Positions 1 through 7,310 of a stretch of 7,310 bases of DNA are shown one piece after another (the stretch's first letter is position 1; each line of letters starts with the position of its first letter). A model generated the notes under the pieces. That model was not told the DNA's origin. It did not search any database and was given only the letters and a program-made list of their open reading frames with translations. The DNA is from a virus (taxonomy: Duplodnaviria > Heunggongvirae > Uroviricota > Caudoviricetes): the IMG/VR virus record IMGVR_UViG_2541047905_000008. The stretch is one strand, 5' to 3'. Position numbers and translations under genes: made by a program.

Positions 1-165
1 CTCATGCTGGCGAACCCAGACACGCAGAGTCTCCGGCGTACAGCCAATCTTTGGAGCAATGGAACAAATTGTCGCCCATTGTGAGTCATATTCGCCCTGA
101 CTTTCCAGAACCATACGGACTGCCCGTTGACGGACTTCAGGGGAAAAACGAGTATTTTTAGTCAT
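1..165 (-). CDS. IS3-family transposase OrfA (helix-turn-helix), N-terminal 55 codons; partial, continues beyond window start
   Basis: Reverse-strand translation from the ATG at 165-163 gives [55 protein letters not shown], open to the window edge. It is absent from the supplied ORF track because it has no stop in the window. The sequence matches the N-terminal HTH region of IS629-type OrfA from memory. Confidence 0.8.
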
Positions 166-219
166 CCTGTTTACCTCTTTCTCAGGAAGTTTAGTCTCCA
201 GGATTCCCGGGGCGGTTCA
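1..219 (-). mobile_element. IS3-family insertion sequence (IS629/IS1203-like), one end only; the rest lies left of the window
   Basis: Reverse complement of 196-219 reads TGAACCGCCCCGGGAATCCTGGAG, a TG-initiated terminal inverted repeat typical of the IS3 family, followed about 55 nt inward by the transposase OrfA start. The OrfA N-terminus matches the IS629/IS1203 OrfA as I recall it. The exact terminal nucleotide (219) is inferred from the TG...CA end rule. Confidence 0.75.
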
Positions 220-3153
220 CTTAATGAAACCACAGAGGAATTGAGCGGGGTTGCGCAAGCGCAGAGAGAAGCCGAGAAGGCCGGAAAACTTGCTGCCGCC
301 CAGCAGGAAGCGCAGACTCAGGCCTTTCAAAGAATGCTGGACAAGATCGACCCTCTGGCTGCGGCGCTAAGAAATCTTGAACAACAGCAGGATGAACTTA
401 ATGCTGCGTTTGCATCCGGGAAAATAAATGGTTCTCAGTTTGAGAATTATAGCCGAAAAATACAGGAAACACGGCGAGAGCTTACCGGAGAGGCTCAGGC
501 AGAGCGAGAAGCAGCAAAAGCGCATGATGAACAGGTTGCTGCTTTGCAACGTCTGATTGCTCAACTTGACCCTGTCGGAACTGCTTTTAATCGTCTGGTA
601 GAACAACAGAAACAGCTCAATGAAGCAAAAGCTAAGGGGATGCTCTCTCCTGAAATGTATGAGGAACTTTCTGGAAAACTTCGTGCTATGCGGAGTGAGC
701 TTGAGGTTACTCAATCTCAATTAAGCAAAACCGGAATGTCGGCAAAACAAACGGCTTTTGCTATGCGCATGTTGCCTGCACAAATGACGGATATTGTTGT
801 TGGGTTGTCCACTGGTCAGTCGCCTTTTATGGTGTTAATGCAGCAGGGCGGCCAGCTAAAAGATATGTTCGGTGGGATTGGCCCGGCGATCAAAGGTGTT
901 GGTTCTTATGTGCTGGGATTAATTAATCCTTTTACCCTGGCCGCAGCAGCCGTTGGCGTCTTAGGGCTGGCTTACTATAAAGGCTCTCAGGAGCAGGACG
1001 AATTTAATAAGTCTCTTATTCTTACCGGAAATCAGTTGGGGACAACCAGCGGGCAATTGGCCGATATAGTTCAACGTGCCGGGAATGCGGCTGATTCGAC
1101 AACTGGCGCTGCGGCGGCAGTATTAAACCAGCTTGTGCGTTCGGGAAAGGTAGCGAGCAGTTCGCTGGAGCAAGTGACGACAGCGATAGTAAAAACGAGC
1201 GAAGTAACAGGAATATCAACCGAACAACTGGTTAATGACTTCAATGAAATTGCAAAGGATCCTGTCAGTGCCATATCAAAACTTAATGATCAGTACCATT
1301 TTCTGACAATTGCGACTTATAACCAGATTAAGGCGCTACAGGATGAAGGGAACCAGCAGGAGGCCGCCCGCATTGCGACAGAAGCATACTCATCCTCAAT
1401 GATCCAGCGCACCAACCAGATTAAAGAAAATCTTGGTTATCTTGAGACTGCATGGAAAGCTGTCGCAGACTCCGCAAAATGGGCATGGGATTCCATGCTG
1501 GATATTGGCCGTGAGGCCTCCCTTGATCAAAAAATCTCAGATGTTCTCCGTCAAATTGATGAAATAGAAAAAAATACCCGACCCGGAGTTTTCGGGTTAG
1601 GTGGCATTGGAGATGGCGGAGCTCAAAATAAAAGGCTGGCACGATTAAAGCAGCAATTGGGCGTACTTCAAGCAGAAAAAATTGCTCAGGACGTACTAAA
1701 TTCATCAATAAACGATTACAACAAGCGACAACAGGAAGGAATTGAACTCAGACAGAGAGCAGATGCCTTTTCAAAACAATATCAGACCCGGGAGCAGCAG
1801 AGAGCTAGTGAACTTGCAAAACTGGAAAAACTAAAGAGTCAGTATTCAAAGGAAGAATATAATAATCTTATCGCTCAAATAAATGAGCGTTATAAAGATC
1901 CAAAGCAACCAAAGGCGAAAGGTTATTCGGATGATGCTGCCCAACGAATGATTGATCATCTGAATCAACAGAATGCGTTACTAAGTTCACAAACTGAATT
2001 AACCGTTAAATTAAGTTCCTCTGAACAGGAACTGGTTAAGTGGCGTCAGCAGATTGCCGACCTGGAGTCACGACCGTCATCGAAATTAACCAAGGATCAG
2101 AAATCGCTTCTCTTACACCGGGAAGAAATAACCGCGTTGATGGAGAAAAATGTTGCGATTGAAAAAAATAACAGGCTAATCAAGGAATCCGCCGAAATAG
2201 CTGCATGGCGTGATTCATTGCAGGCTTCGATTGATAATCGTCAACAGGGGTATGATATTCAGATTGCTGGTTATGGGGTTGGCGATAAAAATCAGCAACG
2301 CCAGCAGGAATTACTGCGGATTGAACGTGAATATAACAATCAGCGTCTGCAACTTGAACGTGACTATGCAGATAAATCCCGTGGGATGTCAAATCATGTT
2401 TTTCAGGAGAAAATGCAGGCTCTGAATGATGCTCTGGAACGAGAAAAAGAAATTGTCAGACAGAAAAACGAGCAGCTCGATATTCAGGCAGGAGACTGGG
2501 TTAGTGGTGCCTCCCAGGGATTCAATAACTGGCTGGATGACACTAAGGATATCAGTGAGCAGATAAAATCAACCACGACTCAGATGTTTGATGGAATGAC
2601 CGATGCGCTGGGTGATTTTGTCACGACAGGCAAAGCAAATTTTCGTTCTTTCGCTACTTCCGTGATTTCGGATCTTAGTCGAATAGCATTAAAGGCTTCA
2701 ATTACTGGGATTTTCGACAGCATTAGTAACAGTTCTTCTGGGGGGATTTTAGGAACTATCGGGAGTGCTATTAGTAAATTTATTCCGAATGCAAAGGGCG
2801 GTGTTTATGAGTCTCCGTCATTGAACACGTATTCGAACGGTATTTATGATTCCCCGCAATTTTTTGCTTTTGCAAGAGGGGCTGGTGTTTTTGGTGAGGC
2901 TGGTCCGGAAGCCATTATGCCATTAACACGAACTTCCGATGGTTCTCTTGGTGTCAGAGCTGTTAATAGTAAAAGTGGTAATGGAGGCGGAGATATTACC
3001 TATGCCCCTGTATACCAAATCACTATTCAAAATGACGGCCAGAATGGAGAGATTGGCCCTCAGGCAATAAAAGCACTTATGGGGATGGTTGATCAGCGGG
3101 TGCAGGGCAATCTGTTAAATATGCGACGTGATGGGGGAATGTTAAGTGGCTAA
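220..3153 (+). CDS. H: Phage tail tape measure protein (lambda gpH-like), 5' end interrupted by the IS element; 978 codons of tape-measure sequence
   Basis: Long ORF (track 127..3153) whose first 31 codons lie inside the IS terminal sequence, so the phage-derived part starts at 220. It has a coiled-coil-rich N-terminus, a conserved AMRMLPAQ...GQSP...QQGGQ.KD.FGG segment, a central hydrophobic/Gly-rich region, a [11 protein letters not shown] motif and a C-terminal [15 protein letters not shown]...RDGGMLSG tail resembling the lambda gpH C-terminus. It sits directly upstream of M-L-K-I-J. No in-frame ATG occurs until 334, so the native start is probably beyond the IS. Confidence 0.85.
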
Positions 3154-3478
3154 TACGGAAGAATTTCACTGGTTACCAGAGGATGGAATGAAAACAGAAA
3201 ATAAACCATCGATAAAAACTGTAAGATTTGGCGATGGTTATGAGCAACGAAGTCCAAATGGACTTAATCATTCTCTGCGCGTTTTCACCTGTGATTTCAA
3301 AGTTGAGGCGAATGAACGTGATTCATTTGAAAAATTTTTAGCCCGGCATGAAGGCTATAAATCTTTTTTTGGCGCCCGCCGGGTATTAACAGAAAAATCA
3401 GAGTGGTGTGTCGAACGTGGTCAGCGACAGAACATATCACCTATACCGATTTTTCGTGTCAGTTTGACGAAGTGGTGA
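3146..3478 (+). CDS. M: Minor tail protein M (lambda gpM homologue), probably frameshifted near the 3' end
   Basis: GTG start at 3146 overlaps the tape-measure stop (3151-3153), with a GGGGGA Shine-Dalgarno at 3133-3138. The N-terminal part, including [16 protein letters not shown], aligns with lambda gpM (VRFGDGYSQRAPAGLN). After the T7 run at 3364-3370 the lambda-like C-terminus continues in another frame. Alternative in-frame ATG at 3188. Confidence 0.8.
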
Positions 3479-3482
3479 TCTG

Positions 3483-4181
3483 ATGCAGGACATACAACAG
3501 GAAACGCTGAATGAATGCATTCGTGCGGAGCAGTCGGCCAGCGTGGTGCTCTGGGAAATCGACCTGACCGAGGTAGGCGGGGATCGCTACTTTTTCTGTA
3601 ATGAGCAGAACGAAAAAGGTGAGTCTGTCACCTGGCAGAGTCGGCAGTATCAGGCCTATCCCATTCAGGGGAGTGGATTTGAGATGAACGGCAAGGGCAG
3701 TGCTGCCCGTCCGACACTGGCGGTCTCTAACCTGCACGGCATGATCACCGGGATGGCGGAAGATCTGCAGAGTCTGGTCGGCGGAACGGTGGTCCGGCGT
3801 AAGGTTTACGCCCGCTTTCTGGATGCGGTGAACTTCGTCAACGGAAACAGCGAAGCCGATCCGGAGCAGGAGGTGATCAGCCGCTGGCGCATCGAGCAGT
3901 GCAGCGAACTGAGCGCGGTCAGTGCCTCTTTTGTACTGTCCACGCCGACTGAAACGGATGGCGCTGTTTTTCCGGGACGTATCATGCTGGCCAACACCTG
4001 CACCTGGACCTATCGCGGCGATGAGTGCGGTTATAGCGGTCCGGCGGTCGCGGATGAATATGACCAGCCGACGTCCGATATCACGAAGGATAAATGCAGC
4101 AAATGCCTGAGTGGCTGTAAGTTTCGCAATAATGTCGGCAACTTTGGCAGCTTCCTTTCCATTAACAAACTTTCGCAGTAA
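3483..4181 (+). CDS. L: Minor tail protein L (lambda gpL), 232 aa, tail tip complex component with C-terminal Cys cluster
   Basis: The 232-aa ORF MQDIQQETLNECIRAEQSASVVLWEIDLTEVGG... is near-identical to lambda gpL as recalled and the same length. The C-terminal cysteines (CTWTYRGDECGYSG ... CSKCLSGCKF) are consistent with the reported Fe-S cluster ligands of gpL. The ATG at 3483 is adjacent to the end of M. Confidence 0.95.
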   Translation: MQDIQQETLNECIRAEQSASVVLWEIDLTEVGGDRYFFCNEQNEKGESVTWQSRQYQAYPIQGSGFEMNGKGSAARPTLAVSNLHGMITGMAEDLQSLVGGTVVRRKVYARFLDAVNFVNGNSEADPEQEVISRWRIEQCSELSAVSASFVLSTPTETDGAVFPGRIMLANTCTWTYRGDECGYSGPAVADEYDQPTSDITKDKCSKCLSGCKFRNNVGNFGSFLSINKLSQ

Positions 4182-4186
4182 ATCCC

Positions 4187-4930
4187 ATGACAGAGACAGA
4201 ATCAGCGATTCTGGCGCACGCCCGGCGATGTGCGCCAGCGGAGTCGTGCGGCTTCGTGGTGAGAACGCCGGAGGAGGAAAGATATTTTCCCTGCGTGAAT
4301 ATCTCCGGTGAGCCGGAGGAGTATTTCCGGATGTCGCCGGAGGACTGGCTGAGTGCAGAAATGCAGGGAGAGATTGTGGCGCTGGTCCACAGCCACCCCG
4401 GTGGTCTGCCCTGGCTGAGTGAGGCCGACCGGCGGCTGCAGGTACAGAGTGATTTGCCGTGGTGGCTGGTCTGCCGGGGGGCGATTCATAAATTCCGCTG
4501 TGTGCCGCATCTCACCGGGCGGCGCTTTGAGCACGGGGTAACGGACTGTTACACGCTGTTCCGGGACGCTTACCATCTGGCGGGAATTGAGATGCCGGAT
4601 TTTCATCGCGGGGATGACTGGTGGCGTAACGGTCAGAATCTCTATCTGGATAATCTGGAGGCCACAGGGCTGTATCAGGTGCCGTTGTCAGCGGCGCAGC
4701 CGGGCGATGTGCTGCTGTGCTGTTTTGGTTCATCGGTGCCGAATCATGCCGCCATTTACTGTGGTGACAGCGAGCTGCTGCACCATATTCCTGAACAACT
4801 GAGCAAACGAGAGAGGTACACCGACAAATGGCAGCGACGCACACACTCCCTCTGGCGTCACCGGGCATGGCACGCATCTGCCTTTACGGGGATTTACAAC
4901 GATTTGGCCGCCGCATCGACCTTCGAGTGA
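4187..4930 (+). CDS. K: Tail assembly protein K (lambda gpK-like): N-terminal JAB/MPN metalloprotease-like domain plus C-terminal NlpC/P60 (C40) peptidase domain
   Basis: 247-aa ORF. The JAMM-type motif HSHPGGLPWLSEAD (HxHx7Sx2D) is at codons 68-81, with an upstream E-x-C-G (AESCGFVV) at codons 18-21. NlpC/P60-like catalytic candidates are Cys121 (VTDCYTLF), His187 (PNHAAIY) and His199/200. An alternative internal start at 4331 with a strong SD would give a 199-aa product, the length I recall for annotated lambda K. The 3' end overlaps I by 103 nt in a different frame. Confidence 0.88.
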   Translation: MTETESAILAHARRCAPAESCGFVVRTPEEERYFPCVNISGEPEEYFRMSPEDWLSAEMQGEIVALVHSHPGGLPWLSEADRRLQVQSDLPWWLVCRGAIHKFRCVPHLTGRRFEHGVTDCYTLFRDAYHLAGIEMPDFHRGDDWWRNGQNLYLDNLEATGLYQVPLSAAQPGDVLLCCFGSSVPNHAAIYCGDSELLHHIPEQLSKRERYTDKWQRRTHSLWRHRAWHASAFTGIYNDLAAASTFE

Positions 4931-5469
4931 AAACGGGGTCCGAAGCCATCCGGGCGCTGGCCATGCAGATCCCGGCATTTCGTCAGAAACTGAGCGACGG
5001 CTGGTACCAGGTACGCATTGCCGGGCGTGATGCAGGTGAAACCGAATTGTCTGCCCGTCTTAATGAGCCGCTGGAAAATGGTGCCGTGATCCATATCGTG
5101 CCGCGTCTGGCAGGAGCCAAAAGTGGCGGTGTGTTTCAGGCTGTGCTGGGGGCGGCTGTTATGGCGGTTGCTATATGGATGCCGGGGGTAGGAATTATGG
5201 CGAGTAATCTGCTGTTTTCTCTCGGTGCCAGTATGACGCTTGGCGGTGTTGCACAGATGCTGGCCCCTAAACCCAAAACCCCCCGCACACAGACAACGGA
5301 TAACGGCAAACAGAACACCTATTTTTCTTCACTGGATAACATGGTTGCCCAGGGCAATGTTCTGCCCGTTCTGTACGGTGAAATGCGCGTGGGATCACGT
5401 GTGGTATCTCAGGAGATCAGCACAGCAGATGAAGGTGATGGTGGTCAGGTTGTGGTGATTGGTCGCTGA
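4828..5469 (+). CDS. I: Tail assembly protein I (lambda gpI), ubiquitin-like N-terminal domain plus hydrophobic C-terminal region
   Basis: 213-aa ORF MAATHTLPLASPGMARICLYGDLQRFGRRIDLRVKTG... with C-terminus ...GNVLPVLYGEMRVGSRVVSQEISTADEGDGGQVVVIGR. It matches lambda gpI closely from memory except in the central hydrophobic segment and is 10 aa shorter. Position between K and J is as in lambda. Confidence 0.93.
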   Translation: MAATHTLPLASPGMARICLYGDLQRFGRRIDLRVKTGSEAIRALAMQIPAFRQKLSDGWYQVRIAGRDAGETELSARLNEPLENGAVIHIVPRLAGAKSGGVFQAVLGAAVMAVAIWMPGVGIMASNLLFSLGASMTLGGVAQMLAPKPKTPRTQTTDNGKQNTYFSSLDNMVAQGNVLPVLYGEMRVGSRVVSQEISTADEGDGGQVVVIGR

Positions 5470-5487
5470 TGAAAAACGTTTTATGTG

Positions 5488-5510
5488 AAACCGCCTCCGG
5501 GCGGTTTTAT
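5488..5510 (+). terminator. Candidate stem-loop / weak intrinsic terminator or attenuator in the 60-nt I-J spacer
   Basis: Perfect 8-bp inverted repeat AAACCGCC (5488-5495) / GGCGGTTT (5500-5507) with a 4-nt loop TCCG, followed by a T-rich tract (TTTTATCGTTTAT). The GC core is only 5 bp, so termination efficiency is uncertain. Confidence 0.3.
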
Positions 5511-5529
5511 CGTTTATGGAGCATGACGA

Positions 5530-7310
5530 ATGGGTAAAGGCAGCAGTAAGGGGCATACCCCGCGCGAAGCGAAGGACAACCTGAAGTCCACGCAGCTGCT
5601 GAGTGTGATTGATGCCATCAGCGAAGGGCCGGTTGAAGGTCCGGTGGATGGATTAAAAAGCGTGCTGCTGAACAGTACGCCGGTGCTGGACAGTGAGGGG
5701 AATACCAATATATCCGGCGTCACGGTGGTGTTCCGGGCCGGTGAGCAGGAGCAGACACCGCCGGAGGGATTTGAATCCTCCGGCTCCGAGACGGTGCTGG
5801 GTACGGAAGTGAAGTACGACACGCCGATTACCCGGACCATCACGTCGGCAAACATCGACCGTCTGCGCTTTACCTTCGGTGTGCAGGCACTGGTGGAAAC
5901 CACCTCAAAGGGGGACCGGAATCCGTCGGAAGTCCGCCTGCTGGTTCAGATACAGCGTAATGGTGGCTGGGTGACGGAAAAAGACATCACCATTAAAGGC
6001 AAAACCACCTCACAGTATCTGGCATCGGTGGTGGTGGGTGACCTGCCGCCGCGTCCGTTCAATATCCGGATGCGCAGGATGACGCCGGACAGCACCACAG
6101 ACCAGCTGCAGAACAAAACGCTCTGGTCGTCATACACCGAAATCATCGATGTGAAACAGTGCTACCCGAACACGGCACTGGTCGGCGTACAGGTGGATTC
6201 GGAGCAGTTCGGCAGCCAGCAGGTGAGCCGTAATTATCATCTGCGCGGGCGTATTCTGCAGGTGCCGTCGAACTATAACCCGCAGACTCGGCAATACAGC
6301 GGTATCTGGGACGGAACGTTTAAGCCAGCATACAGCAATAACATGGCCTGGTGTCTGTGGGATATGCTGACCCATCCACGCTACGGCATGGGGAAACGTC
6401 TTGGTGCGGCGGATGTGGACAAATGGGCGCTGTATGTCATCGGCCAGTACTGCGACCAGTCAGTGCCGGACGGCTTTGGCGGCACGGAGCCGCGCATCAC
6501 CTGTAATGCGTACCTGACCACACAGCGCAAGGCGTGGGATGTGCTCAGTGATTTCTGCTCGGCGATGCGCTGTATGCCGGTATGGAACGGGCAGACGCTG
6601 ACGTTCGTGCAGGACCGGCCATCAGATAAGGTGTGGACCTATAACCGCAGTAATGTGGTGATGCCGGATGATGGCGCGCCGTTCCGCTACAGCTTCAGCG
6701 CCCTGAAGGACCGCCATAATGCCGTTGAGGTGAACTGGATTGACCCGGATAACGGCTGGGAGACGGCGACAGAGCTTGTTGAAGATACGCAGGCCATTGC
6801 CCGTTACGGTCGTAACGTCACGAAGATGGATGCCTTTGGCTGTACCAGCCGGGGGCAGGCACACCGCGCCGGGCTGTGGCTGATTAAAACGGAGCTGCTG
6901 GAAACGCAGACCGTGGACTTCAGCGTGGGCGCAGAAGGGCTTCGCCATGTACCGGGCGATGTCATTGAAATCTGCGATGATGACTATGCCGGTATCAGCA
7001 CCGGCGGGCGCGTGCTGGCGGTAAACAGCCAGACCCGGACGCTGACGCTCGACCGTGAAATCACGCTGCCATCTTCCGGCACCACGCTGATAAGCCTGGT
7101 TGACGGGCAGGGGAGTCCGGTCAGCGTGGAGGTTCAGTCCGTCACCGACGGCGTGAAGGTAAAAGTGAGCCGTGTTCCTGACGGTGTTGCTGAATACAGC
7201 GTATGGGGGCTGAAGCTGCCGACGCTGCGCCAGCGACTGTTCCGCTGCGTGAGTATCCGTGAGAACGACGACGGCACGTATGCCATCACCGCCGTGCAGC
7301 ATGTGCCGGA
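5530..7310 (+). CDS. J: Host specificity / central tail fibre protein J (lambda gpJ), N-terminal ~593 codons; partial, continues beyond window end
   Basis: ATG at 5530 preceded by GGAG at 5516-5519. Translation MGKGSSKGHTPREAKDNLKSTQLLSVIDAISEGPVEGPVDGLKSVLLNSTPVLD... stays open to the window end and matches the lambda gpJ N-terminus as recalled. It is not in the ORF track because there is no stop within the window. Confidence 0.95.
   Translation, partial: MGKGSSKGHTPREAKDNLKSTQLLSVIDAISEGPVEGPVDGLKSVLLNSTPVLDSEGNTNISGVTVVFRAGEQEQTPPEGFESSGSETVLGTEVKYDTPITRTITSANIDRLRFTFGVQALVETTSKGDRNPSEVRLLVQIQRNGGWVTEKDITIKGKTTSQYLASVVVGDLPPRPFNIRMRRMTPDSTTDQLQNKTLWSSYTEIIDVKQCYPNTALVGVQVDSEQFGSQQVSRNYHLRGRILQVPSNYNPQTRQYSGIWDGTFKPAYSNNMAWCLWDMLTHPRYGMGKRLGAADVDKWALYVIGQYCDQSVPDGFGGTEPRITCNAYLTTQRKAWDVLSDFCSAMRCMPVWNGQTLTFVQDRPSDKVWTYNRSNVVMPDDGAPFRYSFSALKDRHNAVEVNWIDPDNGWETATELVEDTQAIARYGRNVTKMDAFGCTSRGQAHRAGLWLIKTELLETQTVDFSVGAEGLRHVPGDVIEICDDDYAGISTGGRVLAVNSQTRTLTLDREITLPSSGTTLISLVDGQGSPVSVEVQSVTDGVKVKVSRVPDGVAEYSVWGLKLPTLRQRLFRCVSIRENDDGTYAITAVQHVP

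Follow-up and report, generated by a model that had tools for sequence, protein, structure and literature searches.

A probable IS629 insertion between codons 100 and 101 of the tape-measure gene of a Rac-family prophage in Escherichia coli

A single copy of IS629 has almost certainly transposed into the tape-measure gene of a Rac-family lambdoid prophage lying at ttcA in Escherichia coli, entering between codons 100 and 101 and duplicating the triplet CTT. By comparison with intact homologues, the element sits 300 nt inside a gene of 1077 codons. The DNA analysed here (the window, 7,310 nt) corresponds without a single mismatch in its 7310 positions to positions 9761-17070 of a 750-kb scaffold, KE701845.1 of assembly GCA_000460555.1, which is called L003 below. 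It is one contig of this gapped scaffold, flanked by runs of N, of which the left one counts 1335 N and the right one 10 N, and it begins inside the insertion sequence because that repeat could not be assembled.

IS629 is a member of the IS51 group of the IS3 family; its isoforms are IS1203 and IS3411, and it occurs in the prophages of E. coli O157:H7 and in Shigella. The reference used in this work is the annotation in record LC567828, where the element is entered as "IS3 family IS629" with a length of 1310 bp and a target-site duplication of TAA. The preliminary description of the window had recognised an IS629-like element of the IS3 family at positions 1-219, and this identification was borne out. 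In a direct alignment, positions 1-219, read on the minus strand, agree with the annotated IS629 at 219 of 219 positions, and the two sequences diverge exactly from position 220. A megablast search of phage records likewise matched the same stretch, at 100% identity, to many copies of IS629 carried by Stx phages. A chance origin is not at issue, since 219 bases are identical to a known mobile element and the boundary is sharp.

The part of IS629 present in the window is its left (IRL) end, located on the minus strand at 1-219 and cut at the window edge by the scaffold gap. It takes in the terminal inverted repeat, then a leader of 29 nt and the beginning of orfA. The inverted repeat IRL, TGAACCGCCCCGGGAATCCTGGAGA on the minus strand, is 25 nt long and occupies 195-219, the identity to the IS stopping at 219; the 196-219 proposed earlier was right to within one base. 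On the minus strand the reading of this segment starts with TGAACCGCCCCGGGAATCCTGGAGACTAAACTTCCTGAGAAAGAGGTAAACAGG and then reaches the orfA ATG at 165-163. Positions 1-165 (minus strand) carry the first 55 codons of orfA, identified from their translation and from Pfam as the helix-turn-helix part of the transposase: OrfA residues 1-55 match HTH_Tnp_1 with an E-value of 1.2e-7 and 32.3 bits, against a cut-off of 24.1.

Three things had been predicted for the region to the left of the window, namely the other end of the IS, a 3-bp duplication matching the CTT at 220-222 and the absent 5' piece of the tape-measure gene in frame. All of them are present in the scaffold. The other IS629 end (IRR) lies at L003 8303-8425 and agrees with the annotated IS629 at 122 of 123 positions; orfB ends within it, its final codons taking up L003 8345-8425. 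Its terminal repeat, TGAACCGCCCCGGGTTTCCTGGAGA at L003 8303-8327, matches the repeat of the opposite end in 23 of 25 positions, with TG...CA termini. The sequence to the left of the gap reads gaatttcttgtccgtaaaCTT followed directly by TGAACCGCCCCGGGTTTCCTGGAGAGTATTTTATCTGTGAACTCAGGCTGCC, and it contains, in this order, a tape-measure start codon at L003 8000, 100 codons, the CTT and the IRR end. The native N-terminus is thus indeed parted from the rest of the gene by the IS, as had been suspected, the 100 codons standing in frame just before the other IS629 end. At the left junction cgtaaaCTT abuts TGAACCGCCCC, and at the right junction GGGGCGGTTCA abuts CTTaatgaaacc. The right copy of the target-site duplication, at 220-222 on the plus strand, is codon 101 of the gene; the left copy, at L003 8300-8302, stands directly before the other IS end. 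A CTT is therefore found on both sides of IS629, compared with one in the intact homologue, and a duplication of 3 bp fits the 3-4 bp of IS629. Target duplications of this size, 3-4 bp, have been described for IS629 in O157 genomes (PMC3271280).

The position of the insertion within the gene can be read from an uninterrupted homologue. In E. coli 7/2, the intact gene is a 3234-nt CDS of 1077 codons (L001 3202-6435; product WP_023153989.1). Position 220 of the window falls on L001 3502. This is where codon 101 (CTT, Leu) begins, at nucleotide 301 of the CDS. Around the target the 7/2 sequence is cgtaaaCTTaatgaaacc, read in codons as cgt aaa CTT aat gaa acc, with one CTT only. When L003 8000-8302 is joined to window positions 223-3153, an open reading frame of 1077 codons is recovered, and this rejoined frame differs from that of WP_023153989.1 by just 3 nt and 3 aa. 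The duplication and the restored frame together mark a simple, recent transposition. The preliminary description had placed the insertion at the 5' end of the tape-measure gene; it is correct that the insertion is inside the gene, but by the 7/2 homologue it is 300 nt in rather than at the very start.

What follows the element is a tape-measure gene. Beyond the 219/220 boundary, the plus strand matches, at 100% identity, genes annotated as tape-measure genes in phage records and in numerous complete E. coli genomes. The 3' segment, at 220-3153 on the plus strand, comprises codons 101-1077 and the stop codon, and is cut off from the start codon and the first 100 codons. In Pfam its 977 codons match TMP_2 (E=7.8e-81), TMP_4 (1.5e-24) and Tape_meas_lam_C (3.4e-26). 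These are the same domains as those of the tape-measure proteins of the lambda gpH type, and the gene also resembles that type in its placement between tail chaperone-like genes and the M-L-K-I-J tail-tip genes. It differs from the gpH type in its 1077 aa and in being broken after codon 100.

The mechanism of insertion may be sketched from what is known of the IS3 family, whose models are IS911, IS2 and IS3 and whose members carry two consecutive overlapping reading frames, orfA and orfB. By analogy with these elements, IS629 would have entered the gene by copy-out/paste-in transposition through a circular intermediate. The reaction would have been catalysed by OrfAB, the transframe DDE transposase that in this family is produced by -1 programmed frameshifting. 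The inserted copy lies in the orientation opposite to that of the tail operon.

It is worth pointing out that the body of the element is represented in the scaffold by a gap. The central part of about 970 bp, which would hold the rest of orfA, the frameshift site, most of orfB and the DDE domain, falls within the run of N, and it is the depositor's scaffolding that links the two halves of the gene. The two sequenced IS629 ends total 342 bp, and an element of 1310 bp thus predicts some 968 bp missing, while the gap is written as 1335 N. Counted between the duplicated CTTs, the spacing in the scaffold is 1677, of which 1335 are N of an estimated gap, against the 1310 bp of the annotated IS629. 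Gap lengths in this scaffold were taken as estimates, because the gap in a second IS629 copy of the same prophage errs in the opposite direction, with 791 N for about 883 expected. Neither the size of the gap nor the orientation of the 4.2-kb segment between the two IS629 copies, L003 4067-8302, alters the conclusion that codon 101 adjoins an IS629 end and that the duplication is matched on the far side. A separate feature is seen at the right edge of the window, where a near-duplicate of 914 bp surrounds the 10-N gap and is likely to be an assembly artefact.

The gapped assembly is also what gives some substance to the suspicion that the junction itself is artefactual, that is, a repeat-induced chimeric contig or a scaffolding error in which the tape-measure gene has been joined to an IS629 copy from another place. 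As a repeat, IS629 is present in multiple copies, the gap length misfits (1335 N for about 968 expected), and the 914-bp near-duplicate at the right window edge already points to one probable artefact. Both junctions, however, lie within contigs and not at gaps, and the two are independent of each other; they fall at the same target position, share the 3-bp duplication and rejoin to a perfect reading frame, which a random chimera would not do. We regard an artefact as extremely improbable. The length misfit bears equally on the thought that the insertion is real while the element is something other than a plain IS629, be it a variant of greater length, a composite or a rearranged structure, or that the 4.2-kb segment between two inverted IS629 copies is inverted in the chromosome. 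The N run does imply about 1677 bp between the CTTs where IS629 would take 1310, the two IS629 copies are mutually inverted and 4.2 kb apart, and the contig ends alone do not prove orientation. Against this, gap lengths are estimates, the gap of the other IS629 being too short rather than too long; about 1.3 kb could not accommodate two IS629 copies; and the order as deposited follows that of the intact prophage. Such a variant or inversion is very unlikely.

The remaining alternatives concern the gene rather than the element. The preliminary description had offered, as a second choice, that the element sits just upstream of the gene and the protein restarts internally. As an account of the native structure this is refuted, since window position 220 is nucleotide 301 of the intact CDS. 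The corresponding idea of a naturally shorter tape-measure gene, starting at TTG 241 or ATG 334 with IS629 just upstream of it, draws on the fact that the gene caller annotated a 970-aa product from TTG 241, and that a GAGG lies just upstream of this codon. No more than 2 nt separate the GAGG from the TTG, though, and a promoter-like site was not found in 1-600. More telling still, the intact homologues at 99-100% identity have 100 more codons upstream of window position 220, and exactly those 100 codons are found beyond the IS, with the matching CTT duplication. We consider a naturally shorter gene exceedingly unlikely. One further proposal, taken as a single claim, allows for three readings: that the host makes use of a shortened protein from TTG 241 or ATG 334, for instance in a tailocin-like particle with an altered length; that precise excision of IS629 of the IEE type makes the insertion a reversible switch; or that an IS629 variant carries extra DNA in the gap, which is about 370 nt over expectation. 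This proposal as a whole is highly unlikely. The simple insertion of one IS629 copy into a full-length tape-measure gene is by far the better account.

On that account, the insertion has left two fragments of the gene, neither of which is a complete frame. The 5' fragment persists as an ORF of 101 codons, for which the TGA at the IS terminus serves as the stop (...AAA CTT TGA). Its product gave only a subthreshold Pfam score for SHOCT, 20.4 bits with a cut-off at 27. The 977-codon 3' fragment has been deprived of its own start codon and ribosome-binding site. There is thus no complete uninterrupted tape-measure frame with its own start, and the frame is whole only after the IS has been excised in silico. 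From these reading frames the gene is inferred to be an inactivated pseudogene, from which a full-length protein would be impossible.

A longer ORF does run across the junction, at 127-3153, and it had been said that its first 31 codons are IS sequence. This was found to be correct: the first 93 nt (127-219) are IS sequence antisense to orfA. This fortuitous extension of the tape-measure frame into the IS, on the plus strand, begins with TTG 127, and the nearest upstream stop is at 82-84. To be expressed, the 1008-aa IS-fusion ORF would need transcription antisense to orfA, and a promoter-like site was not found in 1-600. A look-up of the exact 1008-aa product from TTG 127 returned no gene on record. 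Beyond the junction, an in-frame TTG lies at 241-243 (plus strand), from which the public gene call of 970 aa starts; a look-up of the exact 970-aa product returned one public scaffold, the source scaffold. The GAGG at 235-238 is poorly spaced for it, with only 2 nt between the two. The first in-frame ATG past the junction is at 334-336 (plus strand), which is codon 139 of the intact gene, with no Shine-Dalgarno motif evident upstream; the exact 939-aa product from this ATG matched no gene on record. A scan of positions 1-600 on both strands for sigma-70 promoters and terminators yielded no site, and so there is no support for an outward IS promoter driving the 3' fragment. The earlier statement that no promoter, ribosome-binding site or ATG precedes 334 therefore holds for the ATG and for the promoter, but it has to be qualified by the in-frame TTG at 241 and its poorly spaced GAGG. 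No Rfam family was matched at the gathering threshold anywhere in the window.

The prophage that received the insertion can be recognised from its surroundings. The left part of L003 carries dbpA, ttcA and a truncated integrase, which is the attachment region of the Rac prophage. A full-length Rac-family prophage of about 46 kb occupies the same place in strain 7/2, and its genes run in the order intR, xisR, recET, kilR, sieB, replication, lysis, trkG, terminase, portal, P22-type major capsid, tail, tape-measure, M, L, K, I, J, lom and fibres. BLAST shows the source prophage to be collinear with that of 7/2 at 97-99.9% identity, except for a deletion of 28.8 kb. The deletion is marked by the second IS629, at L003 2849-4066 on the plus strand, whose body is also gapped. 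In the coordinates of the 7/2 prophage, this copy connects L004 3201, a position within intR, with L004 31973, which lies close to where the capsid gene ends. Roughly 28.8 kb are missing at this point, a stretch that begins with the 5' part of the integrase gene, continues through the early, lysis and terminase genes and takes in most of the major capsid gene. The flanks of the second IS629, GTT at one end and GGC at the other, show no target duplication; it is the kind of pattern that an adjacent deletion mediated by the IS, or else recombination of two IS copies, leaves behind.

Through this loss the prophage was already a remnant unable to form particles, and the regulatory and promoter region of the late genes, from which the tail operon would be transcribed, is gone as well. 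With 28.8 kb already lost at the second IS629, the tape-measure insertion is one further step of decay only. It had been proposed that the insertion makes the prophage tail-defective; for the gene this is formally right, while for the phage the point is moot. The Rac prophage of K-12 makes an instructive comparison. It lies at the same chromosomal site (dbpA-ttcA-intR) and has the same tail module, and both prophages are defective remnants. Its tape-measure gene survives as the remnant ynaA/tmpR, of which ynaA matches the empty target site at 99%. The two have decayed in different ways: K-12 Rac retains the early region and has lost most of its late genes, whereas the source strain retains the tail module and has lost everything from the 5' part of intR to the capsid gene. 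Likewise, the tape-measure gene is truncated in K-12 Rac and split by an IS in the source strain.

How widespread the insertion is was assessed among complete E. coli genomes. A probe of 300 nt with the empty site at its centre located the uninterrupted sequence in 1064 of 5426 of them. The junction of IS629 with the tape-measure gene occurs in 0 of 5,426, no place covering at least 80% of window positions 1-900. A search for the exact 32-nt junction pattern in one genome per species, with a single representative of E. coli, gave no match, as would be expected from that coverage. The insertion is specific to a strain or lineage. Set beside the IS629 reference, the sequenced parts in the window show no difference at all; it is the insertion site that is absent from the 5,426 complete E. 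coli genomes. There is one related case in E. coli T28R (NZ_CP142708.1), where an IS1A has been inserted independently into the homologous tape-measure gene, about 20 bp downstream of the IS629 site. There too, the 5' portion of the gene is left as a pseudogene fragment and the 3' portion as a long ORF; the case differs in the family of the element (IS1), in the position and in the strain. The two cases together indicate that IS insertions in the tape-measure gene belong to the ordinary decay of prophages.

The insertion is of an already known kind: a textbook insertion of a known element, not a new one, into a known gene of a known type of defective prophage. It is a further instance of a documented habit of IS629, which tends to settle in prophages and drives their decay by insertion and adjacent deletion. 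In four O157:H7 genomes, 62% of the IS629 copies sit in prophages (PMC3271280). Beyond its bearing on annotation, the insertion is of little importance, and it leaves no biological question open. The call of a 970-aa "tape measure protein" is best seen as the 3' part of a pseudogene, and the 101-aa ORF upstream as the 5' part. The site, being strain-specific (0 of 5,426), could serve as a typing marker for the lineage.

The remainder of the window is taken up by lambda-type tail genes on the plus strand, in the same order as in E. coli 7/2. An M-like gene at 3146-3478 (Pfam Phage_min_tail) is followed by L at 3483-4181 (Phage_tail_L), K at 4187-4930 (Prok-JAB and NLPC_P60) and I at 4867-5469 (Lambda_tail_I). 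The 5' part of J, with FNIII-A_GpJ and Phage-tail_3, extends from 5530 to the window end. A truncated tail module had been considered, given that J was apparently missing from the list of ORFs, and was rejected because the J ORF runs off the end of the window. Gene I is annotated as frameshifted in strain 7/2; in the window its frame is open from 4828/4867 to 5469.

The scaffold from which the window derives (KE701845.1) carries a second IS629 copy about 5.7 kb to the left of the window, on the plus strand at scaffold positions 2849-4066, with its body lying within a 791-N gap. At this copy a truncated intR is connected to the major capsid gene's 3' end, and roughly 28.8 kb of Rac-family prophage sequence (positions 3202-31972 in the full-length prophage locus of E. 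coli 7/2) has been replaced by it. The copy is flanked by GTT on one side and GGC on the other, without a target duplication. Between this copy and the tape-measure gene, scaffold positions 7079-7836, which are not part of the window, contain ydaY (Pfam Phage_YdaY) together with a 66-aa ORF; these two sit 5' of the tape-measure gene, where lambda carries the tail chaperone genes G/GT.

The tape-measure gene has also been interrupted elsewhere. In E. coli T28R (NZ_CP142708.1), the homologous gene carries an independent IS1A insertion (positions 3171-3949 of the T28R locus), some 20 bp further downstream than that of IS629. A few more genomes besides T28R may have a disrupted tape-measure gene, as the 300-nt empty-site probe was not fully covered in 7 of the 1071 genomes having a match.

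Compared with strain 7/2, the tape-measure gene differs by only 3 nt, but the 7.1-kb tail segment as a whole (window 219-7310 against prophage positions 36206-43297) is 98.8% identical, which places most of the divergence downstream, from M to J. This concentration hints at mosaic exchange among the tail-tip genes. Within this stretch, tail assembly gene I (window 4828-5469) is an open frame, whereas its strain 7/2 homologue is frameshifted according to the RefSeq annotation; in the window, gene I overlaps the end of gene K (window 4187-4930), and this overlap measures 64-103 nt according to which start codon is assumed.

The window's final 914 bases (6397-7310) recur almost exactly at scaffold positions 17081-17994 (908/914), and the two copies flank the 10-N gap that marks the window's right edge, so that gene J is split into calls of 593 and 870 aa. 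The repeat is probably either an uncollapsed contig overlap or the product of an assembly that mixes two alleles of J, rather than a true tandem duplication.
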